Numbered from the stretch's first letter, positions 20,838-32,365 are shown. The stretch: 32,365 bases of DNA from Aestuariivirga sp. (GCA_036510015.1 DATCEN010000365.1:1-32365), one strand, 5' to 3'. Notes: generated by a model from the sequence alone, not told the origin. Numbers and translations are program-made.

Positions 20838-21227
20838 TCATGCTTCGCGCAGGTGGCTTTTGTCGCCAAAGTGCTTACACATAAAAGTGGTTATATATTT
20901 ATGGCCTTTAACTCTGATGCGCAAAATCTTCACAAACTTAGTGCCCTTGCTGTTGCAGTTTTTTGCTGCGCGCTTCTCTAACTTGGCGGTTGAATCGCGG
21001 AGCAAACAAGTTGCACGGCCGTGAGCTTTACCCAACCCCATAAATCTCTCGCCGAACTTTCGCTGACACAGGCTTTTTAATTGAGACCTTTGGCTTTGCT
21101 CAGAAACTAACAGCGCGTGTTGACCATCCGTAGCAGCTGACTGCCGCGGCAGGGGTGGCATCGCTTCAGCCACACTAAAACTCAAACTAAAGACGATCAA
21201 AATTGCCCAGTTGAAGATAAGCCGCAT
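20838..21227 (-). CDS. Small secreted cationic four-cysteine hypothetical protein
   Basis: Signal peptide ending in AEA, SD-like AAGGGG, co-oriented and filling the gap between FAH and hisS. No family recognised. Confidence 0.7.
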   Translation of the reverse strand: MRLIFNWAILIVFSLSFSVAEAMPPLPRQSAATDGQHALLVSEQSQRSQLKSLCQRKFGERFMGLGKAHGRATCLLRDSTAKLEKRAAKNCNSKGTKFVKILRIRVKGHKYITTFMCKHFGDKSHLREA

Positions 21228-21246
21228 GAATTGCCCCCTTATTGGC

Positions 21247-22092
21247 TTACTTATCGCGCACAACCTTTTGACGCTGCACGCCTAGGCCCTCAATGGCGAT
21301 CACCATCTTATCGCCCGGCTTCAAATACTGCGGCGGCTTCATGCCCATGCCAACGCCAGGCGGTGTGCCAGTGGTGATCACGTCTCCCGGCATCAGTGTA
21401 AAAAACTTTGAGAGATAGGCCACAATATGCGCCACGCCAAACACCATGGTTTTGGTGGAACCATCTTGCATGCGTTTGCCGTTAAGCTCTAGCCACATGC
21501 TTAAATTTTGTGGGTCTTTCACCTCATCGCGGGTGACTAACCATGGGCCGATGGGGCCGAAAGTGTCATAGCCTTTGCCCTTGGTCCATTGGCCAGTACC
21601 TTCTGTCTGAAATTCCCGCTCAGACAGATCATTCACCACGCAATAACCTGCCACATGCTTCATGGCATCGGCTTCTTTGATGTTCTTGGCCTTGCGCCCG
21701 ATGATCACGCCAAGTTCAACCTCCCAATCAGACTTCTGAGATTTTGGTGGAAGTGTAACAGTGTCATTTGGCCCACTAACGCAGGAAACTTGTTTTGTAA
21801 AAACAACGGGTTCGACGGGAACCTTCAAACCGCTCTCAGCAGCATGATCTGCATAGTTAAGTCCAATGGCGATGAATTTCTGCGGATTGGCCACACAAGC
21901 GCCGATGCGTGGTTTGCCTTTGACCAGCGGCAGTTTGTTGGGGTTGAGCTTGCGCAACTTAGCAAGGCCCGCTGGCGAAATGGTTTCGCCGTCAATGTCT
22001 TTGACATGCTTGGCCAGCGAGCGAATTTTGCCGTGCTGATCCAGAATGCCGGGTTTTTCTTTGCCCTTGGGGCCATAGCGTAAAAGTTTCAT
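21247..22092 (-). CDS. Fumarylacetoacetate hydrolase (FAH) family protein
   Basis: MKLLRYG, IGLNYADHAAE, DWEVELGVIIG, NDLSER, KGYDTFGPIGP, GDVITTGTPPGVG; ATGA overlap with the upstream ORF. Confidence 0.94.
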   Translation of the reverse strand: MKLLRYGPKGKEKPGILDQHGKIRSLAKHVKDIDGETISPAGLAKLRKLNPNKLPLVKGKPRIGACVANPQKFIAIGLNYADHAAESGLKVPVEPVVFTKQVSCVSGPNDTVTLPPKSQKSDWEVELGVIIGRKAKNIKEADAMKHVAGYCVVNDLSEREFQTEGTGQWTKGKGYDTFGPIGPWLVTRDEVKDPQNLSMWLELNGKRMQDGSTKTMVFGVAHIVAYLSKFFTLMPGDVITTGTPPGVGMGMKPPQYLKPGDKMVIAIEGLGVQRQKVVRDK

Positions 22093-22661
22093 GTTCCATC
22101 CCATTGCAGCGCAGACTTATGCCAGCGCGGTTTGTAACCTTTGGCCAAAATGGCAATAATAGAAGGCGGTGTCAAAACCTTATCTGCTTTGCGCAAAGGA
22201 ATTGCATCTACATAGCCACCAAATGACCAACGCAACAGGCGATTGCCTTTAATGGCATAGGCTTGGTTATCAATCTCAACAATCACGCCACTGACCATTT
22301 CGACATGGTGGGATGGATTCAATCGCTCCTCATGCAACAGCCGATCAAACGCGCCAGCCTTCTCGCCGCACAGAAAAGCCTTGGCCTCTGCCCGCCTACA
22401 TTCCCAGCAGGGCCTATGGCCAGCGGCGAGAGCTGTGACCTCATCAAGAAAAAATAACTCGGTATAAGCTGGCCCCATCACTTCACGGTGGCGACCTCTG
22501 AAATGCAACTCGCAACATATCCATTGCCTGCTGGCCCAGCGCCGTCTTCCTAATGTCTTATCCTCGCGGTGAAACTTGCCGCCGCGATTGCCCATCATTG
22601 TGCCGCGCTCAGCAACAGCATAAAGCTGCCCCCAAGGATCAACGCGGTTTTGCAGCGCCAT
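22089..22661 (-). CDS. Conserved hypothetical protein with Cys motifs (Ada-like metal-binding signature)
   Basis: MALQNRVDPWG...MGNRGG, WICCEL, YTELFFLDEVTALAAGHRPCWECRR; translationally coupled to the FAH gene. Confidence 0.75.
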   Translation of the reverse strand: MALQNRVDPWGQLYAVAERGTMMGNRGGKFHREDKTLGRRRWASRQWICCELHFRGRHREVMGPAYTELFFLDEVTALAAGHRPCWECRRAEAKAFLCGEKAGAFDRLLHEERLNPSHHVEMVSGVIVEIDNQAYAIKGNRLLRWSFGGYVDAIPLRKADKVLTPPSIIAILAKGYKPRWHKSALQWDGT

Positions 22662-23805
22662 GGTGGAGGAGGTTGTGTCGGCCGATGCCGGCGATATTGC
22701 GCTCACCACACAAGCCCATTGTGGTTGAAAGTTCTTTCTGAATGATATCCAGCGCGTGGCTCACACCCGCTTCGCCGCCTGCACCGAGCCCATAGATATA
22801 AGCCCGCCCGATCATTGCCGCTTTAGCGCCTAAGGCCAGCGCCTTCATCACATCCATGCCAGTGCGAATGCCTGAATCCATCCACACTTCGGTTTTCTTG
22901 CCAACTGCATCCACCACCGGCCCTAACATGTCGATGGTTGGCGAACAGCCATCCAATTGCCTGCCGCCATGATTAGAAACAATGATCGCATCGGCGCCTT
23001 TTTTGGCGGCGATTTTGGCATCATCCACATCATTGATGCCCTTGAGAATAAGTGCGCCATCCCATTGCTTGCGGATGAAATCAACCGAACTCCAATCCAG
23101 CGATGGATCGAACTGGCGATGCGTCCAATTGGCCAAATCCGCCATGTCTTCTACATCTTTGGCGTGGCCATGAATGTTGCCAAATTTACGGTTTTTCGTG
23201 CCCAACATGCCCAATGCCCAGGCAGGCTTGGTTGCAATGTTGAGCATGTTTTTGAACGTCACTTTGGGCGGCGTTGAAAGCCCGTTCTTCACATCCTTGT
23301 GGCGCTGGGCCAATACTTGCAAATCCAAGGTTAGTACCAAGGCAGAGCATTTGGCAGCTTTGGCCCGCTTGATGAGGCTGGCAACAAAATCGCGGTCACG
23401 CATCACATAAAGCTGAAACCAGAACGGCTTTTCCACATGCGCGGCAACTTCTTCAATAGAACACACACTCATGGTTGACAGCGTGTAAGGCACGCCGAAT
23501 TTTTGCGCGGCACGGCAGGCATGGATCTCGCCATCCGCATAGTTCATGCCGCCAGAACCAATCGGTGCCAAAGCCACAGGCATGGCAACTTTCTGGCCTA
23601 AGATTGTACTTGCAGTAGAACGGTTGTCGATATTCACGGCCACGCGTTGGCGCAGATAGTGCTTTTTGAAAGCCTCAGTGTTTTCAACAAACGTCTGTGC
23701 GGTGTAGCTGCCCGTCTCACAATAATCGTAAAACATCTTGGGTACGCGCTTTTTGTAGAGGTCACGCAGATCGTCAATGGCCGGGGCCTGGGAAGGTTTG
23801 AACAT
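22639..23805 (-). CDS. lldD: FMN-dependent alpha-hydroxy acid dehydrogenase (L-lactate dehydrogenase-like)
   Basis: VPKMFYDY, FWFQLYVMRDR, LTLDL, LKGI, SNHGGRQLD, DSGIRTG.D, IGRAY. AAGGAG precedes ATG 23805. Confidence 0.9.
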   Translation of the reverse strand: MFKPSQAPAIDDLRDLYKKRVPKMFYDYCETGSYTAQTFVENTEAFKKHYLRQRVAVNIDNRSTASTILGQKVAMPVALAPIGSGGMNYADGEIHACRAAQKFGVPYTLSTMSVCSIEEVAAHVEKPFWFQLYVMRDRDFVASLIKRAKAAKCSALVLTLDLQVLAQRHKDVKNGLSTPPKVTFKNMLNIATKPAWALGMLGTKNRKFGNIHGHAKDVEDMADLANWTHRQFDPSLDWSSVDFIRKQWDGALILKGINDVDDAKIAAKKGADAIIVSNHGGRQLDGCSPTIDMLGPVVDAVGKKTEVWMDSGIRTGMDVMKALALGAKAAMIGRAYIYGLGAGGEAGVSHALDIIQKELSTTMGLCGERNIAGIGRHNLLHHGAAKPR

Positions 23806-23846: not shown

Positions 23847-26800
23847 TCAGAACGAGCCTATCATATTGACGAAGACACCGTGGTTGTCATGGGCGATTTG
23901 AGCAAGATTGTCGCTAAATGTGCCAAAGTTATAGCCCAAACCCACTTTGAAATTCTCGCCCACCTGGCGGTAGATCGCAGCCACGAACCCAATATCGGTT
24001 GAATTATCAGTTGGCGACCACAGCATGCGCGCCTCCGCCAAAACGTCCCATGCTTTAACCACATGATAATCTGCACGAACAATGCCGAGATAAGCAGCAT
24101 CTGGCGTCCAAGTAGCACCTGGTACCGAGCGGTCTAAGATTTCGCCAACGCGGAAACCAAATTTGCCACCAAGGGCCAGCTTCTCTGTGACATTATAAGT
24201 GACATCACCAGAGAAGATGTTTGAAATTTGCTCTGGGCTGGTGGTGGTTCCATCAAGTGTCACCTGCCCTGCCCCTGGTGCATCATAAACAAAGTTATAT
24301 TTAATCAGTGCATTCATATGGTCATTGTCTGCTGGACGGTAGGCAAAACCAACTATTCCGTTGACCAGCGCAGAACTCAGTGTGTCATTGCTCGCATTAG
24401 ACCACACCAGATCAAGATTGGCCAAAGCACGCCAATCCTTGTTCATTTTATAACCAAGTCCAAGTTGCAACAGATAGCTCATGATTTCGGATGAACCGTC
24501 ATCCGCATAATCCCAGCGCACTTCGCCTTTGGCCTTGCCGTCCAATCCGGCCTTGTCGTGATAAACGGCAGATAATGAAAGAGCGTCGCGGTATATGTCA
24601 GGGTTCTTTAGGCTTGTGCTCGGGTTAATTGTGTTGTCATAAACTTGGCCAACTTGTGCGGCGGCTTCAATCTTCCACTTGTCAGTGGGCGTATATGACA
24701 CGCCGTAAGCGTTGGCCAAGCTTTGTCTTTCACCAAAATAATCATAGCTGGTTTCAGCAAAGCCAGACCATTGATCATTGAATTTGCGCCTGTCACCCAA
24801 AGTGACGGTGCCAAGATCAGAACCGCTCAACAGATAAGGATAGCCTGGCGATGTGCTACGATAAGCATCGCGGGCATAGCCGATGGTATAATGATCATCC
24901 GCAGTTCTGGCATAGTCAATTGAAGCATTTACACCTGGGCCCTGATCGCCGTAAGAAACCTCCCCTGCAGCTGTAAGGCGGTCATTGATCTTGCCCTTAT
25001 AACCAACGCCAGCGCGATTGTCGGAAAGCATCGTGTCAGTCAAAATAACTGTACCTTGGCCAAAAACATAGGCTTGGTGGTCACGGTCAAAATCTCTGAT
25101 GAGTTTTACACCAGCATCGCCGCGCGCGCCCGTTTGGGTGCTGACAAGAGCTGTGCCTTCTTGTTCGGTATATTTGGCATAAGGTTCAACCGTCCAGCCC
25201 TTGGTAACAATGACATCCACTGCCGCCTTGCCGCTGCGCATCAGGCTTTGCCCAAGGGCGTTGTTTTCACTATATTCGCCTTTGGCTGCCACATTGTCTT
25301 TTACTTTGACGTCGCCAGCCACGCCCCATTTATAGGTCTCAGCCGTGGTTTGGATCTGTGGCGATGAGAAGCCGGCATCATAATGTTCAAAGCGGCCCTG
25401 AACTTGGCCCTGCGCTTTGCCTTTGGTGACTTCATCAAGATCAGCGGCACCCTCAACACGCCATGCATTTGCTGGAACACCAGTGATACCAGCACCAGCA
25501 GTCGTCTGCGTAGAAATGCCGCCGTTGACTGAATAGGTTGAGCCAAAGCCCGGCCCTTCAGAATGGGCCACTTCACCTTCAACAAATGTTTTCGGCGAGG
25601 ATTGAATGTGAATATCAGCCCCACCCATGGTTTGATCGGCGGTATTCTGCTTTTCACGTAAGCCCGTTGCCCCCACGCGGATGTGATCTGACAGCCAAGT
25701 CTCAGCGCGCCCACCAAACACATAGGCATTTGTATCCGTGCCGACTGGCTCATAAGTATAATGAGCGATCAGATAATTTTCGTTGCCGGAAATATCATTG
25801 GAAGGCAGCGGCGAATTTAAGATCAACACGCCATTGGTAGGATCAAAAGTATAATCGGTTGTAGGTGTCAACTGCGTTGTGGAAATTACAAAGCCAGTGA
25901 TCGGATTACGAACCTCAACGCTCACCACATCACTGCCGGCGGTGATGTCACTATGCGCCATAAAATAAGTCGAACCACCCGTGCCGCGGAAAACATCGGT
26001 TTCCGGCACCGTCTTTGGCAAGGCCGCATAGGCATCAACTGAACGCTTGGCATTGCCGTCAGCGGTCACCGCATCAGAACGATAAACCCCGCCCGCGCCA
26101 TAAAGGGCGCGGCTTTCGGCCATGAACTTTGTGCCGGTGATATTGGTTTTGAAATTGCCCCACATGATGGAGCTTGGCCCGCGTTCAAGGCGCACATAGA
26201 TCTTGCCGCTGGTGGGCGCATCTTCAATCAACGTCGAGTCATCACCATAAACCGGATAATAATCATTGGCATTGATCTTCTTGATCATATCACGTGGGTC
26301 TTTGCCACCAATGCCCGTGAACATATCCGCCAGTGTGCCTTCACCGGTATCAGCCGAGGCAGTCAATATATATTGTCCTTTGATCTTGCCCTTGAGATAG
26401 AAGGCGGCGCGGCCAATGGCCCATGTGCCGGGGAATTCGTCAACGCCAGTGTGTTCAATAATGCCACCGCCAAAATTATTGCCAACGGTAAGATCAGCAA
26501 TGCCAACCCCAAACCATTCATTTTCTGGCACAACCACTTCGCGCGAGAAATGCAGACCTTTGCCATCTTGCAACACGCTGACATCAAGCATAGCAGCCCC
26601 TGGCGGCAGCAAGCGTTGCACCATGAAGCTGTCATTGCCATCCACTGGAACAACTTCGCCCATCACTTTTACTTCATGGTTCTTCGGCACTTTTTTGCCA
26701 ATCACTGTGACGGCACCACCAAAAACACTGATGTTGCGAACGGCCGTGCGGTCATCACCATAGCCCGGAGCCACAGCGTCCTTAGCTGAATCCGGCAGTG

Positions 26801-27326
26801 GCAAATTAGTGTCGCTGTGTTTTAAGGGCAAAGGTCTCGTTTCATCATAACGGCCATCTTTGTCATAGACCCGCAGCACATATTCCATCTCGGCAGGCGC
26901 ATCACCCGGCATCACCCATTCGGCAGCACCGGTGCTTGCCACAGGGATAGCAACAAACGGCTGCGAGTTTTGGTCATAGCCTGCTGCATAGATGCGCACC
27001 TCGGCCTTGTTGATCCAAGCCGCATAATTGAAGCTGGCCAAGAAGCGGATTTTGTCCGCCGAACGGAAGTTCACTTGCAGTGGGAAGGTTGAAACATTCA
27101 GCGCGGGCCGCACGCCGAGTCCATCAAACTTCACCTGAATATCGACACCATCTAGTTCTGCGGCTTCCATTTTCTCAACCCGCTTAATATCAGCGCTCGA
27201 GTCGACTTTCTTGCCATCGAAAGAAATGCTGAAGGGAAGATCATTATCCGCACGGGCGGGCAATGGCACCAACAAGAATGCTGAGAGCACAAATGTCGCG
27301 AGATACTTAAGTGTGGAGTGCGTCAT
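23847..27326 (-). CDS. Large outer-membrane beta-barrel protein (1159 aa) of an uncharacterised family, partner of the repeat protein
   Basis: Sec signal peptide (PARA-D), about 250 aa of soluble beta-rich N-terminus, then about 890 aa of amphipathic Gly/aromatic strands ending in a BAM-type signal (GVFVNMIGSF). ATGA overlap with the upstream gene. Confidence 0.85.
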   Translation of the reverse strand: MTHSTLKYLATFVLSAFLLVPLPARADNDLPFSISFDGKKVDSSADIKRVEKMEAAELDGVDIQVKFDGLGVRPALNVSTFPLQVNFRSADKIRFLASFNYAAWINKAEVRIYAAGYDQNSQPFVAIPVASTGAAEWVMPGDAPAEMEYVLRVYDKDGRYDETRPLPLKHSDTNLPLPDSAKDAVAPGYGDDRTAVRNISVFGGAVTVIGKKVPKNHEVKVMGEVVPVDGNDSFMVQRLLPPGAAMLDVSVLQDGKGLHFSREVVVPENEWFGVGIADLTVGNNFGGGIIEHTGVDEFPGTWAIGRAAFYLKGKIKGQYILTASADTGEGTLADMFTGIGGKDPRDMIKKINANDYYPVYGDDSTLIEDAPTSGKIYVRLERGPSSIMWGNFKTNITGTKFMAESRALYGAGGVYRSDAVTADGNAKRSVDAYAALPKTVPETDVFRGTGGSTYFMAHSDITAGSDVVSVEVRNPITGFVISTTQLTPTTDYTFDPTNGVLILNSPLPSNDISGNENYLIAHYTYEPVGTDTNAYVFGGRAETWLSDHIRVGATGLREKQNTADQTMGGADIHIQSSPKTFVEGEVAHSEGPGFGSTYSVNGGISTQTTAGAGITGVPANAWRVEGAADLDEVTKGKAQGQVQGRFEHYDAGFSSPQIQTTAETYKWGVAGDVKVKDNVAAKGEYSENNALGQSLMRSGKAAVDVIVTKGWTVEPYAKYTEQEGTALVSTQTGARGDAGVKLIRDFDRDHQAYVFGQGTVILTDTMLSDNRAGVGYKGKINDRLTAAGEVSYGDQGPGVNASIDYARTADDHYTIGYARDAYRSTSPGYPYLLSGSDLGTVTLGDRRKFNDQWSGFAETSYDYFGERQSLANAYGVSYTPTDKWKIEAAAQVGQVYDNTINPSTSLKNPDIYRDALSLSAVYHDKAGLDGKAKGEVRWDYADDGSSEIMSYLLQLGLGYKMNKDWRALANLDLVWSNASNDTLSSALVNGIVGFAYRPADNDHMNALIKYNFVYDAPGAGQVTLDGTTTSPEQISNIFSGDVTYNVTEKLALGGKFGFRVGEILDRSVPGATWTPDAAYLGIVRADYHVVKAWDVLAEARMLWSPTDNSTDIGFVAAIYRQVGENFKVGLGYNFGTFSDNLAQIAHDNHGVFVNMIGSF

Positions 27327-30300
27327 TTGCTCGGCTCCACGCTGGCGTTAATATCCAACGCATAGCCACCTTTGGCAGACGCAAAGGCTTCCTTCACCAA
27401 ACCCGCAACCGCATCAACACGTGCTTGCGCCAACTCGCCGCTGTCGCTGCCTTGATGATAAATAATTTGCAGGTCAGACCGGCGCTTGCGCAAGATGTCG
27501 ACCAATCGGTCAATGCCCAAGCTCCACTTTTCAGTGAGATCAGCACTGCCATTATCAAACGCCCGGCCAGTGATATCGACTTTCACTTCATGAATTTTGG
27601 TGGCACCGAAGTTGATCTCAGTCATCTTGCCGCGCGTAACGCGCACAACGCGTGGATTTTCGGTTGTGATTTTGTAACCCTGTGGAAGGGTGCGCGGATC
27701 AATTTTCATAATAAAGTTGGAACCAATGGCACCATCAGGAATGGCGGCACATGGAATGTGGAAGCGCCCTTCCGCATCGGTTATCACTAACGTGCCGTTG
27801 GCTGTGGCAAGGCGAACGCCGCCAAGGCCTTTGTATCCGTCGCGCATATAGCCATCGCCGCTAACATCATCAAACACACGGCCGATAATATCGCTGCAAT
27901 CAAATGTCGCTTCTGGGATCACCTCAACTGTGGCTTGGGCAGAGGCCAAAACAGCGTTGCTGGTCTGATCAATGAGGCGCGCATTGTTTACAAATTGGCC
28001 ACCGCTCAACGAAGCCTGCGCAGCGAGGTTCAACGTCAAGATTATTTTGCCGTTGGTGGGTGTGAGATTATTGAAGGTCAAAATCACGCCACTCACCACT
28101 GGCACCTTCACCACACCATTCACTTGTGCCGATCCCGTCACGAAGGCAAAGCCGGGGGGCATAATGTCAGCCAATTGATAGGTGCCACCATTGAGGTTGC
28201 TGGCGGTGATTGTGAAAGGCACTACATCGCCGCGCTTCACTTGGCTGCGCGCTGCCACTTTGGTTAACACAGGCTTCGTAACATATAGTTGCGTTACAGT
28301 TGGCTGCGGTATGGGTGCTGCTAAGCTAGATTTGTCGCTGAGAACACCTAACGGAAGTTCGGTCGAAGTAAATTTGGCTTGATTGGAATAGGAACCGGCG
28401 ATTGCATCAGTTGGCGAGACCAGATGAGTTGCTGTGAAAGTTGTGGTGTCGCTGATGCCTGGCGCTAAATTGACGATTGGGCTACCCGACACAGTTGCAC
28501 CGGCATCCGAAATAGTGATGTTGTTGAGATCTATATTACCGGTGTTGACCACAGTGAAAGTGTATTTTATGGTGTCGCCCGCATCAGCGATGCCATTGCC
28601 ATTGGTGTCGGCCACCGTAAAGCTCTTCACCACAGCCATTGCCGGGCTAACCGTGAGCGGCACAATCGTCACATTGTGTGTTGCAGGATTGCTTGAGTCA
28701 GATAGATCGGTGACAACAAGGTTCTTCGCGATGTTGGTGCCTGTGGCGAGAATTTGGTTATCAACATGGCCAGCCAACATTTCTGCATTGGTGATCTGGT
28801 GCTTCACTACAAAATGGGTTGAGTCAGATGCGCCAGCAGCCAAAGTAAATGGCGTGGCACCGGAGACATTGCCAGTATAAATCCCACTTTCAGCCACCGT
28901 CACAGTGTCAAACGGGACGTTGCCGGTGTTGCTAACCGTAATAGTGTAAACCGCAAAGGCTCCTGTGGCAGGCGCTGCGATGGTCGCACCGCCGGCATTT
29001 TCAAAATGGTTGAAAGTTTTCAGTGCCGTGACCGATGGATTGGCCACAATCAAGAACACAGTCGGATTTTGCTGGGTGTAATCCAGCGGGTCGGACAGCT
29101 TGGTCACCTGGATGGCCTGCCCGTTGCCAGCCGAAGCCGCCGCATCAGCGGCAATAGCCTTCGCCTGCGCCTTATAGATGCCCGATGCGATGTCATTGGC
29201 CGTCAACACGTGGGTTGCAGTAAAGCTTGTGGTGTCTTCCTGATTGGGCAGCAACGTCGAGTTCAGCGTCCCTACGACGGTAATGCCAGTGACATAGTCT
29301 TGCACTGTGATATTATTTAAAGGATCGAGGCCGGTGTTCTTGATCTTGACTTGATAGGTCAAGGTATCGCCCACATCCATAATGCCATCACCATTGGTAT
29401 CCGCATAGGTGGGGGCCACGAGAATGATCGAGATGGAAGGCGTTGGGTGAATGGTTGTGTCAGTGGTCGAATTGGTTGACGATGTTGGATCACCATTGAG
29501 TGAAGTAGCATTCACTTGTGTCGGACTAATCGGCTGACTGGCTACGATCGTGGCGCGGTTCTTGACTACGCCCGCAGTTTCATCCGCAGTGGTCACAGTA
29601 TAAGTTGCTGTGAACATGTTAGGGTTGGTAACGCCCGGCGCCATCGTTGCGCCCGGCGCTAAGTTCTGTACTTGGGCTGCTGCTAGCGCGTCTGTCAGTT
29701 GCAAATTGCTGAGCGTGACATTGCCGGAATTCACTACAGTGAATGTGTAATGCAGTACATCGCCAGCATTGAGAATGCCGTCATTATTTATGTCAACCCA
29801 TGAAGCCAGTTTCTTGTAGAGCACAATTTGTGGCTGCTGCACCAAAGGCTCTATTGTTGGGTTAGACTGAGTAGGCACAAGTGGATCTGAATCATGTGTA
29901 ACAGTGGTTCCATCCGGCGCGGTGCCTGTTGCTGTCGCGATATTGTTCACATGGCCCGCATCAACATCAGTTTGGGTGATTGGATAGCTTCCAGTGATCT
30001 GCGGGCTGGTCTGACCAGGGGCCAGTGAAACAATAGGCCCACCAGTGATGGTCACATTTGCTCCACCGCCAACTTTGTCGGTAATGTTGATATTGTGCAG
30101 CGTGACATTGCCGAGATTGTAAACCGTAAATTGGTAATGGATTACATCGCCTGCGTCATTGATGCCGTTGAGATTGGTATCCACAAGCGTGGTAACCTGC
30201 TTCAGCAAGCCGATCGCTGGCACTGGCGCAATTGGCGTTACAGTTGGACGGTGTTGCTTTGGATCAGCATTATCGGAAAGAACTGAGCTAGACCCACCAC

Positions 30301-32365
30301 CCTGCACGCTGGCTGTGACAGTCGCCTGATTTTGATATTTGCCGGCATCAATATCAGCTTGTGTGAGAATATATTGGGCAGTGATGGTGCTGCTGTCAGT
30401 CACACCTGGTGCAAGTGAGGCGATTGGCCCGCCCGAGACATTGATCAGCCCGTCAGTGATGCCAACATTCTTCAGAGTAACGTTGCCTAAATTGGTGACT
30501 GCAAATTTATAGACGATGACATCGCCAACTTGTGCAGAAACGCCGTTCGCTGGCGTAATAGTGCCTGTCTTCACCGCGCCAAAAAGTGGAGCTTGTTGGA
30601 GTGGAAGATCAAAACTTGCCGCTTTAATTAAGCTGGCACTACCACCGTCTTTGGCTGTGGCAGTGGCAAGATTGTGCACAGTGCCCGTATCAATATCGGC
30701 CTGCGTTAATGTGTATGGCGCTGTGAATGTGTAGCTTAATCCAGCATTCAGCTGCGGATCACTTGCCGGGCTGATTGAGGCCGTGGCAATGTCATCATAA
30801 GTTTTGATGCCGGACAGTGGCAACACGTCAGTCACGGCTTGCAAGGCATCATGGCCTTGCTGGGTTGAACTGACATAACCGTTGGAAACAACCGCTCCAG
30901 AGGCAATATCATCTGGCGTAAGTTCACGCGTGAAGATCATGCTGCTGGCGTCGGTTTCGCCTGCACCGAGCAAACTGACATGGCCGCCGAAGGTCAGGCT
31001 GTCCGTCTGTGTAACGGAGATATCAGAAACACCGTTCTTGCCGGAATTGGTGATGCTATAAAGGACGCCGATCTTTTCGCCGGCTTGCAGATCACCCGTG
31101 GCACCTGACATGCGCACCAATTGACGCGAGATCGAAAGTGTATCGGCCAAAGCCAACCCACCTGCGTCTCGTAAATGGGCACGGCGATTGTCGGCGGCAA
31201 CAATGCCACTGGTGCTTCCGACATGATCAAATGAGGCAGTCGCAAAACTGGCTGCATCAGGATTGCCCGCCAAATCCAATAGCGCCACCATTTGTTGCGT
31301 AGTTGTTTCGGCAGAGGCCAACAGCGGGTCAGAAACCGAAACATTAAAGAGTGGCGTTGCGCCAGTATTGGTGACTACGAGTGTGTAATTCACCGTATCT
31401 CCAGCCTTTGGCGGAACTGCTGGTCCATTGGCCAGCACACCAGACTTCGCAAAGCTCATAGCCGCATTCGTGTTCAATGTTGTGGTGGCGCTGCCATTGG
31501 CGGTGATATTGGGTGAACCAACTGGTGAAGGCGTGGCGGTTGCTGTGGCGGTATTGGTGTAGCTGCCCGCTGTAATGTCCGACGCCGTTAATGGATGTGA
31601 CGCAGTGAAAGTTGTGGTGTCGCTGATGCCAGGTGCCAAAGTGACAATTGGGCCACCCGAAACGGTTGCACCAGCATCCGAAAGGGTGATGTTGTGAAGG
31701 CTGACAGTGCCAGTGTTCTTGATAGTAAATTTATAGGTGATCGGATTGCCAACCACTGCGGCTCCGCTCAAAGTATCGATCTTGGTGACAGTCATGCTCG
31801 CGTTACCACCCAATGGTGTGACTGTTGGCGCGTTGGCGCTCGGCCCTGCGGTGACAGGATCAGATACATCAGAAACCGTGGTGCCCTTTGGCGATTTGCT
31901 GGTGACCGTTGCGGAATTACTCACTTGGCCAGCGTCCATGTTGGCCTGTGTGATGACATAGTTGTTACCCGAACAAGTCACGCTCGCCCCAGGCGCAAGG
32001 TTGCCTGGTGGGCAAGTTATATTCACAACGATACTGTCAGTGACAGTGATTGTATTCAGCGCCACATTGCCGAGGTTCGAGACCTTGAAGCTGTAAGCAA
32101 TGGTATCGCCCGCATCGAGCACGCCATTGCTGTTGGCGTCGAAAGGTGCGGCAGCGGTTTTGACCAAACCGATTATTGGATTTTGATTGAGTGTAACAAC
32201 CGTAGGCGAATTAGCCGATGGGCCAGATATGAGCGGATCCGAGAGGTCGCTTACTGTGCCACCTGAAGGTGTTGATGCCGTGGCTGTTGCTTGGTTGGTT
32301 ACTTTACCAGCATCTATATCCGACTGCTTCAGCACATAAGCCGGTGCCGTGCAGTTCATCACTTC
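27323..32365 (-). CDS. Giant Ig-like repeat surface protein (DUF7507/DUF11-type repeats, SdrD-B-like domain, degenerate OmpA-like C-terminus); 5'-partial
   Basis: Frame is open to the window edge (>1680 aa). Repeats of about 110-135 aa follow the pattern K...GD.I.Y.F.V.N.GNV.L.N..+.D...LAPG...T..D+DAG...N.A. Then DIIGRVFDD..GDG....GLGGVRL...TDAEGRFH, then AFDNGSADL...LAQARVDAV. Confidence 0.9.
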   Translation of the reverse strand, partial: EVMNCTAPAYVLKQSDIDAGKVTNQATATASTPSGGTVSDLSDPLISGPSANSPTVVTLNQNPIIGLVKTAAAPFDANSNGVLDAGDTIAYSFKVSNLGNVALNTITVTDSIVVNITCPPGNLAPGASVTCSGNNYVITQANMDAGQVSNSATVTSKSPKGTTVSDVSDPVTAGPSANAPTVTPLGGNASMTVTKIDTLSGAAVVGNPITYKFTIKNTGTVSLHNITLSDAGATVSGGPIVTLAPGISDTTTFTASHPLTASDITAGSYTNTATATATPSPVGSPNITANGSATTTLNTNAAMSFAKSGVLANGPAVPPKAGDTVNYTLVVTNTGATPLFNVSVSDPLLASAETTTQQMVALLDLAGNPDAASFATASFDHVGSTSGIVAADNRRAHLRDAGGLALADTLSISRQLVRMSGATGDLQAGEKIGVLYSITNSGKNGVSDISVTQTDSLTFGGHVSLLGAGETDASSMIFTRELTPDDIASGAVVSNGYVSSTQQGHDALQAVTDVLPLSGIKTYDDIATASISPASDPQLNAGLSYTFTAPYTLTQADIDTGTVHNLATATAKDGGSASLIKAASFDLPLQQAPLFGAVKTGTITPANGVSAQVGDVIVYKFAVTNLGNVTLKNVGITDGLINVSGGPIASLAPGVTDSSTITAQYILTQADIDAGKYQNQATVTASVQGGGSSSVLSDNADPKQHRPTVTPIAPVPAIGLLKQVTTLVDTNLNGINDAGDVIHYQFTVYNLGNVTLHNINITDKVGGGANVTITGGPIVSLAPGQTSPQITGSYPITQTDVDAGHVNNIATATGTAPDGTTVTHDSDPLVPTQSNPTIEPLVQQPQIVLYKKLASWVDINNDGILNAGDVLHYTFTVVNSGNVTLSNLQLTDALAAAQVQNLAPGATMAPGVTNPNMFTATYTVTTADETAGVVKNRATIVASQPISPTQVNATSLNGDPTSSTNSTTDTTIHPTPSISIILVAPTYADTNGDGIMDVGDTLTYQVKIKNTGLDPLNNITVQDYVTGITVVGTLNSTLLPNQEDTTSFTATHVLTANDIASGIYKAQAKAIAADAAASAGNGQAIQVTKLSDPLDYTQQNPTVFLIVANPSVTALKTFNHFENAGGATIAAPATGAFAVYTITVSNTGNVPFDTVTVAESGIYTGNVSGATPFTLAAGASDSTHFVVKHQITNAEMLAGHVDNQILATGTNIAKNLVVTDLSDSSNPATHNVTIVPLTVSPAMAVVKSFTVADTNGNGIADAGDTIKYTFTVVNTGNIDLNNITISDAGATVSGSPIVNLAPGISDTTTFTATHLVSPTDAIAGSYSNQAKFTSTELPLGVLSDKSSLAAPIPQPTVTQLYVTKPVLTKVAARSQVKRGDVVPFTITASNLNGGTYQLADIMPPGFAFVTGSAQVNGVVKVPVVSGVILTFNNLTPTNGKIILTLNLAAQASLSGGQFVNNARLIDQTSNAVLASAQATVEVIPEATFDCSDIIGRVFDDVSGDGYMRDGYKGLGGVRLATANGTLVITDAEGRFHIPCAAIPDGAIGSNFIMKIDPRTLPQGYKITTENPRVVRVTRGKMTEINFGATKIHEVKVDITGRAFDNGSADLTEKWSLGIDRLVDILRKRRSDLQIIYHQGSDSGELAQARVDAVAGLVKEAFASAKGGYALDINASVEPSK
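28286..32365 (-). repeat. Tandem array of divergent Ig-like protein repeats: one partial, nine complete and one nested
   Basis: Repeat starts GLVKT, TVTKI, SFAKS, (nested SISRQ), GAVKT, GLLKQ, VLYKK, SIILV, TALKT, AVVKS. Divergent at the DNA level apart from local matches. Confidence 0.85.

Follow-up and report, generated by a model that had tools for sequence, protein, structure and literature searches.

A giant CLIPPER_2-repeat protein and its partner barrel as a candidate outer-membrane export and fibre system in Aestuariivirga sp.

A pair of adjacent genes was analysed on the minus strand of a 32,365-nucleotide stretch of DNA from Aestuariivirga sp. (GCA_036510015.1, DATCEN010000365.1:1-32365). 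This stretch, here called the window, makes up the entire contig C365; the assembly to which it belongs is 73% complete. Gene A (27323..32365), an open frame cut at its 5' end by the contig end, encodes a putative base or stalk protein of which 1680 residues are visible. Gene B (23847..27326) encodes a predicted outer-membrane barrel protein of 1159 residues with a terminal Phe. The A-B system is real, well conserved and undescribed in the literature searched. We consider it likely that gene B provides a dedicated export and anchoring pore for the product of gene A, and that the pair forms the base of a donor-hairpin, probably isopeptide-locked fibre. We also lean, modestly, towards a broader statement: that a single-chain barrel of about 40 strands, larger than SprA, captures the C-terminal SdrD-like domain of its partner, in an unnamed diderm secretion or fibre pathway that serves either one giant adhesin or a chaperone-free, sortase-free split-isopeptide pilus.

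Coupling of the repeat protein to its barrel

The stop of gene A and the start of gene B have the letters ATGA at 27323-27326 in common, as had been noted in the original prediction, which was made from the window sequence alone. That prediction also proposed an examination of the co-occurrence of barrel homologues with repeat-protein genes, and the pairing was found in all three samples of loci. The first comprised the best 80 of 557 genomic loci, all close kin, eight of them without upstream DNA; the gene A module lay directly upstream of gene B in 72/72 testable loci. A giant partner bearing the SdrD-like domain stood beside the barrel in all ten close-tier loci from a phylum-wide draw (nine upstream, one downstream), and in 5/5 full-length plasmid loci among the 6 of 26 plasmid records that were opened. 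In ten loci of a distant tier, an N-terminal tab (described below), DUF11 and the barrel were fused, with DUF11-type subunits upstream.

Fusion of the two partners was also observed. Among 150 listed homologues of gene B, an SdrD-like domain was present ahead of the barrel in all 17 longer than 2,000 residues and in 4 of the 33 of 1,291-2,000 residues. In one of these (P0148), about 20 residues join the SdrD-like domain to the barrel, and the OmpA-like and N-terminal immunoglobulin-like (Ig) domains are both absent. From this composition the irreducible core was deduced to be the SdrD-like domain plus the barrel, and from the short linker the C-terminus of the SdrD-like domain was deduced to lie near the periplasmic start of strand 1. 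The OmpA-like domain varies in location, being found on gene A, on gene B (43 domains in 26 of the 150 homologues) or in a separate gene (L124, L135). Several single loci are recorded here for their own sake. Three places match the barrel on a Pelagibacterium plasmid (L122). On a plasmid of Acinetobacter haemolyticus (L125:7951-21458), a distant-tier DUF11-barrel-OmpA operon lies close to arsenic-resistance genes and a transposase, and its upstream subunit gene is broken into several pieces. In L123, L127 and L130, tab-less adhesin-barrel pairs are directly adjoined by FecR and CHASE2 or two-component regulator genes.

All features of genes A and B given below are on the minus strand. Gene B opens with a signal-peptide-like N-terminus (residues 1-26, 27249..27326), recognised by eye and as a helix in the model, followed by two beta-sandwich domains at about residues 61-175 and 190-268 (26523..27146), which had no Pfam match and are presumed to be periplasmic. 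The barrel region spans residues 268-1159 (892 residues, 23850..26525) and was modelled with about 40 membrane strands. This agrees with the original prediction of a signal peptide, soluble N-terminal domains and a barrel of about 890 residues ending in Phe. Between strands 7 and 8 lies an inserted beta-domain of about 100 residues (436-534, 25725..26021), assigned to the outer side by strand parity and showing weak likeness to a SprA segment and to a phage tail-tube domain. The barrel had been described as free of a TonB box or plug; a TonB-type plug was indeed lacking, and the description is refined by this inserted domain.

Gene B had no Pfam match at E<=0.01, and searches of PDB sequences with gene B, its diverse profile and a profile of the insert returned nothing meaningful. 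Foldseek with the gene B model gave generic barrels only, with template modelling scores (TM-scores) of <=0.21 by query, and a protein atlas gave unnamed clusters only. The plugged 22-strand TonB-dependent receptor, the outcome named in the original prediction as contrary to it, did not emerge from these comparisons, as the model has about 40 strands and no receptor family matched. The gene B family is large, with 3,224 representatives at 50% identity matching. The barrel was found in 36 of 301 sampled genomes of the phylum, and its distribution is patchy (13 of 24 same-genus genomes).

Gene A was resolved into the domain order originally predicted, and the limits agree within about 20 bases. 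It begins with an array of Ig-like DUF7507 (CLIPPER_2) repeats (28358..32362; 11 Pfam stretches above the cut-off, E 1e-158), and the protein also matches TIGR01451 repeats. The array is followed by a DUF11 (CLIPPER) domain (27914..28276), in which orthologue comparison showed a conserved Lys and invariant Asp and Asn, and by an SdrD_B-like domain of the CnaB fold (27599..27913) with two invariant Cys. DUF11 matched 64/67 and SdrD_B 65/67 orthologous C-terminal modules (E<=0.05), the SdrD-like domain of the window itself not being among the SdrD_B matches. The SdrD-like domain is the most conserved part of gene A, with a mean identity of 66% versus 50% for the barrel.

The last 91 residues of gene A (27323..27598) form a tail that had been called degenerate OmpA-like. 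Pfam OmpA was found in 0/67 orthologous modules. The designation is supported by the fold model, beta-alpha-beta-alpha-beta, and by an hhalign comparison with Pfam-confirmed OmpA domains, which gave a probability of 83% (E 9e-6); six controls (five shuffles and one unrelated profile) all gave <=0.85%. The peptidoglycan-binding motif of OmpA-like domains includes an Asp and an Arg, and in the tail the Arg was invariant in 67/67 and the Asp loop was deleted or variable. The tail is dispensable in some homologues (P0148, L124). Fold searches with the gene A C-terminal model were filled by its two Ig domains and did not reach the tail.

The Lys/Asp/Asn triad was followed through the repeats. By eye, the eight complete aligned repeats of the window comprised six with Lys/Asp/Asn, one with Lys/Glu/Asn and one from which Lys and Asn have both been lost. 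Among gene A orthologues, 318 complete repeats, a set chosen for good full-length matches, had the three residues at 98%, 94% and 99%, respectively; a motif parse found them in 256, 275 and 221 of 292 repeats. One CLIPPER_2 repeat of the window is interrupted by a nested insertion of about 180 residues (30782..31327, limits by eye), which holds a degenerate repeat and recurs in orthologues. In that degenerate repeat Arg replaces Lys, and the insertion would form a side branch of the stalk; the same interruption was seen in L042, L043, L045, L047, L050, L067, L068 and L072.

The original prediction had proposed modelling the barrel together with the C-terminal part of gene A. For the barrel (residues 268-1159) and the SdrD-like domain (gene A residues 1485-1589), the interaction prediction score from aligned errors (ipSAE) was 0.69 in three runs, and the best of three controls scored 0.00. 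The ipSAE mark used was reached by 116/157 solved and 2/215 mismatched pairs, a rough calibration in that our own alignments were used. The runs shared >=86% of about 220 contacts, and the predicted local distance difference test (pLDDT) of the partner was >=81. The predicted contacts alternate along strands 1-3 and 32-40, from which they were deduced to form the lumen face, and they include the conserved loop Y357-A370 (26217..26258), which is modelled as folding inwards and pairing with the SdrD-like domain in the lumen. In an alignment of greater diversity, conservation averaged 0.76 for the interface strand residues; it was 0.51 at the remaining positions on these strands and 0.46 across all strand residues elsewhere. 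Four of the invariant charged residues of gene B, D362, R997, K1055 and R1100, belong to the predicted interface. The model supports binding of the SdrD-like domain by the barrel and places it in the lumen against the most conserved barrel face; this domain, rather than the OmpA-like tail, is taken to be the part that engages the barrel. An orientation with the stalk outside and the tail inside was deduced from the fusions and from the OmpA-like tail.

Split CLIPPER_2 subunits and the proposed fibre

In same-genus relatives the A-B pair ends a longer operon, whose upstream genes encode secreted proteins; signal-peptide-like N-termini are present on all operon genes. The chains of these upstream subunits stop three or four residues past the helix of their last CLIPPER_2 domain in 64/68 cases, the other four being unparsed, in a set selected by its own C-terminal motif. 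In an unselected count by eye, 68 of the 87 repeat-bearing frames other than A and B ended at the helix, and the 19 exceptions were all in loci with broken frames (L034, L063, L065, L085 and L093). A hidden Markov model (HMM) built from the 318 complete repeats matched the last domain of 60/60 5'-closed subunit frames to position 92-94, where the chain ends. The isopeptide Asn corresponds to HMM position 98, and most mature N-termini match from about position 95. Pfam likewise covered 1-83 of 105 positions of the last domain in two tip proteins. These incomplete domains, here termed sockets, have the Lys in 68/68 and the Asp in 66/68.

The complementary N-terminal tabs were scored after the signal-peptide-like site. 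A donor score of >5 was obtained for 48/60 subunit frames, all 48 with Asn at +4, for 19/39 gene A frames and for 0/73 barrel frames; the scoring script keeps only the top-scoring site within the first 330 residues, which in L090 and L092 was an internal one, although both have N-terminal tabs. By eye, a socket gene was present upstream of all 27 gene A frames with a visible tab, and the 6 intact gene A frames without a tab had no socket gene within the available 2.0-5.9 kb upstream, in a tally that left out five broken frames and one frame without upstream DNA. At the sequence level, the chaperone-usher feature of an incomplete Ig fold completed by the N-terminal extension of the next subunit is present, as a two-strand hairpin in the CLIPPER_2 fold. 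The operons encode as many as four different subunits, ordered from tip to base. The larger first genes have a socket but lack a tab, and carry Calx-beta, DUF4347 or DUF11 arrays, the make-up expected of a tip. In a further locus (L127:7490-11243, minus strand), two secreted proteins upstream of an SdrD-bearing gene end abruptly in a Cys-containing strand; they had no DUF7507 or DUF11 match with the profiles used and are possibly a third kind of split domain.

The 5' part missing from the window was reconstructed from relatives and from sequencing runs. A relative with 94% identical DNA (L034) has one shaft gene and a gene A of about 2,050 residues with a signal peptide and a tab at its start; by comparison, gene A of the window is missing about 390 residues, including the signal peptide and the donor hairpin. 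A contig of 2,013 bases from run X1 extends from the 3' part of the shaft gene into gene A as far as the edge of the window, and its Asn codon is unchanged; that edge is bridged by a contig from run X2. A 10-base duplication that breaks the shaft gene of L034 was absent from all three runs examined. It was concluded that the organism very probably has a three-gene operon of shaft, base and pore. The upstream search recommended in the original prediction, for a signal peptide and further subunits, thus yielded both, in relatives and in run contigs. Its central proposal, export or anchoring of the repeat stalk by the barrel while the OmpA-like tail stays inside, gains partial support from the gene coupling, the fusions and the predicted lumen complex; it was incomplete in that gene A is read here as the base of a multi-subunit fibre, which was missed because the window is truncated.

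The proposed mechanism is as follows. The operon products would be exported by Sec. The folded Ig domains would then pass, N-terminus first, through the gene B pore, estimated from barrel geometry to be about 6-7 nm wide, until the SdrD-like domain docks in the lumen and stops the passage, leaving the OmpA-like tail and the N-terminal domains of gene B in the periplasm. The N-terminal two-strand tab of gene A would plug the incomplete last domain of the upstream subunit, giving a head-to-tail order of tip or free socket, shaft subunits, A and B, and a covalent lock would form from the Lys and Asp of one subunit with the Asn of the next chain. In other lineages the same pore may display one giant adhesin without split subunits, or be fused to the adhesin.

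Points against the proposal and alternative readings

Several points weigh against this proposal. The loci are close kin and not independent events. The window contains neither the gene A N-terminus nor the shaft gene, run X1 may be its source, with 97% of the window's words present in it, and no other DUF7507 gene was found in the same, partial assembly. The gene B model has a pLDDT of 72.9 and a predicted template modelling score of 0.58, and because its pLDDT is <50 across residues 267-383, parity was needed in part to assign strands 1-3 and to arrive at 40; a crude amphipathicity test was passed by only 21/41 strand segments. The complex model gives no orientation, and solved barrels that enclose an Ig domain in the lumen (FimD, SprA) may have contributed to its score, although the PDB contains no sequence relative; the interface conservation is not independent of the alignment fed to the predictor. 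Among the tabs, 12/60 subunit and 20/39 gene A frames fell under the donor threshold, these being tips, broken frames, Asp tabs, tab-less adhesins and heuristic misses. Five gene A orthologues (L042, L043, L045, L047 and L072) have Asp rather than Asn at tab +4, which could form a Lys-Asp bond or no bond. In the nearest relatives the operon encodes no tip adhesin; the fibre could therefore be left with an open socket at its end or acquire a tip encoded elsewhere. Finally, no chaperone or energy source was evident in the operons, the genes seen all having DUF7507, SdrD-like or barrel matches, though no chaperone profile was run on the loci.

Some of these points would suit another arrangement, to which we give a small but real chance, in which A is a single adhesin exported and anchored by B, and the split subunits do no more than cap it or add one or a few copies to its length, or attach non-covalently, with no long polymer. 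Many loci have only A and B and no split subunits (6/33 scored loci, and plasmid loci L121-L124), no chaperone or assembly ATPase was seen, Asp stands for Asn in the five tabs, and BsaA oligomers lacking the bond persist until heated according to the available part of the report (PMC11580942). However, the shaft subunits hold both a tab and a socket, which permits self-polymerisation, conservation of the Lys, Asp and Asn on the two sides of the split is similar to that in intact repeats, and a tip-to-base series of up to four different subunits is encoded. A multi-subunit fibre on a gene B pore is preferred. The same pore could instead be a SprA-like translocon for which the SdrD-like domain is a transient C-terminal signal, A being released or passed on, and the weak likeness noted above might be cited for it; this was deemed quite improbable, as the scores are far below the 200-bit cut-off and involve one 75-residue motif that also occurs in a phage tail-tube family (18/44), A and B are often a single polypeptide, and beyond the docked domain A continues into a peptidoglycan-type tail.

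Docking of the SdrD-like domain from the inside, with the stalk kept in the periplasm as an envelope tether, was judged highly improbable. It would fit the OmpA-like domains found on A, on B or in a separate gene, and the predicted contacts, most of which parity assigns to the periplasmic half of the barrel. It fits poorly with a stalk that ranges from about 1,200 to >5,000 residues among kin, with partners that start with adhesin-type domains (Calx-beta, DUF4347, DUF6923 and CshA-repeat matches), with the patchy occurrence in the genus, and with the exit of the OmpA-like tail and the stalk from opposite ends of the docked domain. That B is an uptake porin or TonB-dependent receptor, as its database label states, with A as an accessory binding protein, is scarcely credible: there was no TonB_dep_Rec or Plug family match, the strands number about 40 versus 22, receptor matches were partial arcs with root-mean-square deviations of 8-19, the lumen is predicted to be filled by A, and no substrate-use genes travel with the pair. 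Export and anchoring of A by the gene B pore remains our preferred interpretation.

Flanking genes and comparison with known systems

The nearest named relatives of the locus are Aestuariivirga and other Hyphomicrobiales assemblies. In the same assembly, no other contig matched gene A or B and none continued C365; contig C305 carries the upstream kinase flank only. That flank, seen also in L034, consists of a tRNA-like gene with the anticodon GTG by eye (L034:1781-1857) and a divergent PAS histidine kinase gene (L034:3-1610). The kinase gene and a downstream flavin mononucleotide-dependent dehydrogenase gene flank the locus in many same-genus genomes, the barrel being present in only the 13 of 24 noted above. 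Five genomes (G001, G006, G007, G008 and G011) have two barrel loci, the second partner being different and often much longer (>5,100 residues in L024). The rest of the window (54-22104) holds ordinary genes: a sulfate-type ATP-binding cassette (ABC) transporter, an Rrf2 regulator, an ABC-F ATPase, glyoxalases, a resistance-nodulation-division efflux pair, a lytic transglycosylase, a sulfate permease, hisS-hisZ-hisG and an FAA hydrolase. Two open reading frames downstream of a lactate-dehydrogenase-like gene, 22089-22709 and 20838-21263 (both minus strand), had no Pfam match, and the former has clustered Cys and His residues. A promoter and terminator scan downstream of gene B gave chance-level results, and no RNA dataset was listed as containing the window.

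A full-text literature search returned no account of this barrel family, of CLIPPER domains that are split or of such a pathway, most subscription papers lying outside its coverage; within that literature the system is undescribed, as the original prediction had held. In the parts available, PMC6329079, PMC13297417 and 10.1101/2025.08.19.671072 mention DUF11 and not the A-B system. Three 38-stranded barrels have been predicted in Deinococcus radiodurans (PMC9388160, seen in part); they are possibly related to the gene B family, which may bear on whether the family has had earlier notice in print. DUF7507 and DUF11 both matched in the control genomes of Deinococcus radiodurans and Thermus thermophilus.

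The nearest known proteins in domain content are the CLIPPER and CLIPPER_2 fibrillar adhesins, which share the domains and the Lys/Asp/Asn triad found here. The CLIPPER isopeptide bond was shown within a chain by a crystal structure (PDB 9IFR) and the CLIPPER_2 triad was predicted (PMC12617251); the crystallised domain came from a 2,129-residue Gram-negative adhesin with an OmpA-like anchoring domain. In the available part of that report the bonds are treated as intramolecular, no barrel, split domains or export route is described, and outer-membrane crossing of such adhesins is not addressed. The 9IFR source protein (B9T28_05395) may be a substrate of an A-B type pathway. If the present proposal is true, it would supply an export and anchoring route for many Gram-negative DUF11/DUF7507 adhesins ending in an OmpA-like domain and would add a widely mislabelled barrel family of about 40 strands. 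On the broader reading, the translocons of this pathway would number in the thousands, among proteins that now bear the labels TonB-dependent receptor, OmpA family protein or hypothetical. The proposal would also mean that diderms have covalent, sortase-free and apparently chaperone-free pili, and would offer a natural collection of split-isopeptide pairs of tag and catcher.

Gene B was compared with known barrel families, and membership was rejected. For a TonB-dependent receptor, there was no Pfam match at E<=0.01 and no such NCBIfam family at E<=0.1, with about 40 strands in the model. The usher family PF00577 matched contigs C115 and C354 of this genome, not C365, and an usher has 24 strands versus about 40; that separate usher (C115:490-1896 and C354:2150-2458 of genome G000) is unlinked to the A-B locus. 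Omp85/POTRA gave no Pfam match for gene B or its N-terminal 267 residues, which form beta-sandwich domains. A classical type Va autotransporter would end in a 12-stranded autotransporter barrel, whereas gene A ends in the OmpA-like tail, and no autotransporter Pfam family was found in gene A, gene B or 19 long homologues. The absence of an autotransporter barrel and of a POTRA/TpsB architecture, asserted in the original prediction, is consistent with these searches and with the model. For SprA/Sov, TIGR04189 scored at best 17.7 bits among 19 barrels, and not at all for gene B, against a cut-off of 200 bits; a search of the genome with this family carries no weight, as none of the controls matched. 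Gene B also differs from SprA/Sov of the type IX secretion system in having half the length, one barrel per substrate operon and a proteobacterial host.

The closest parallel for the proposed lock is the BsaA fibre of Clostridium perfringens, in which, as established by mutagenesis, an N-terminal Asn joins the Lys of the next chain and an acceptor acid catalyses the reaction (PMC11580942). Donor-strand exchange with a Lys-Asn lock is thus common to both, but from the available text BsaA differs in its TasA family fold, Glu catalyst, SipW peptidase, monoderm host and absence of an outer-membrane pore. Membership of the TasA/BsaA family was rejected, as the Peptidase_M73 score of gene A (16.8 bits) is below the 22.5 cut-off, the subunits match DUF7507 and no peptidase gene was seen in the operons.

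In two-partner secretion the TPS recognition domain is N-terminal. The A-B pair resembles type Vb two-partner secretion and the fused type Vd in that a giant passenger lies beside, or is fused before, its own barrel (PMC13721041, seen in part); it differs in having no Omp85/POTRA match, a putative C-terminal SdrD-like recognition element and a barrel with more than twice the strands. Chaperone-usher pili, in which FimH, FimA and FimI are assembled on FimD, have a 24-strand usher (PMC12122975 and PMC13721041, as far as available), compared with about 40 strands and no Usher match here. The donated element here would be a two-strand hairpin with the isopeptide Asn, in a CLIPPER_2 rather than a pilin fold. 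No chaperone gene was seen among the operon genes, the anchor would be a stalk of 1,200-5,000 residues with an OmpA-like tail, and pore and anchor are often fused. By analogy, the A-B system may work like a chaperone-usher pilus crossed with two-partner secretion.

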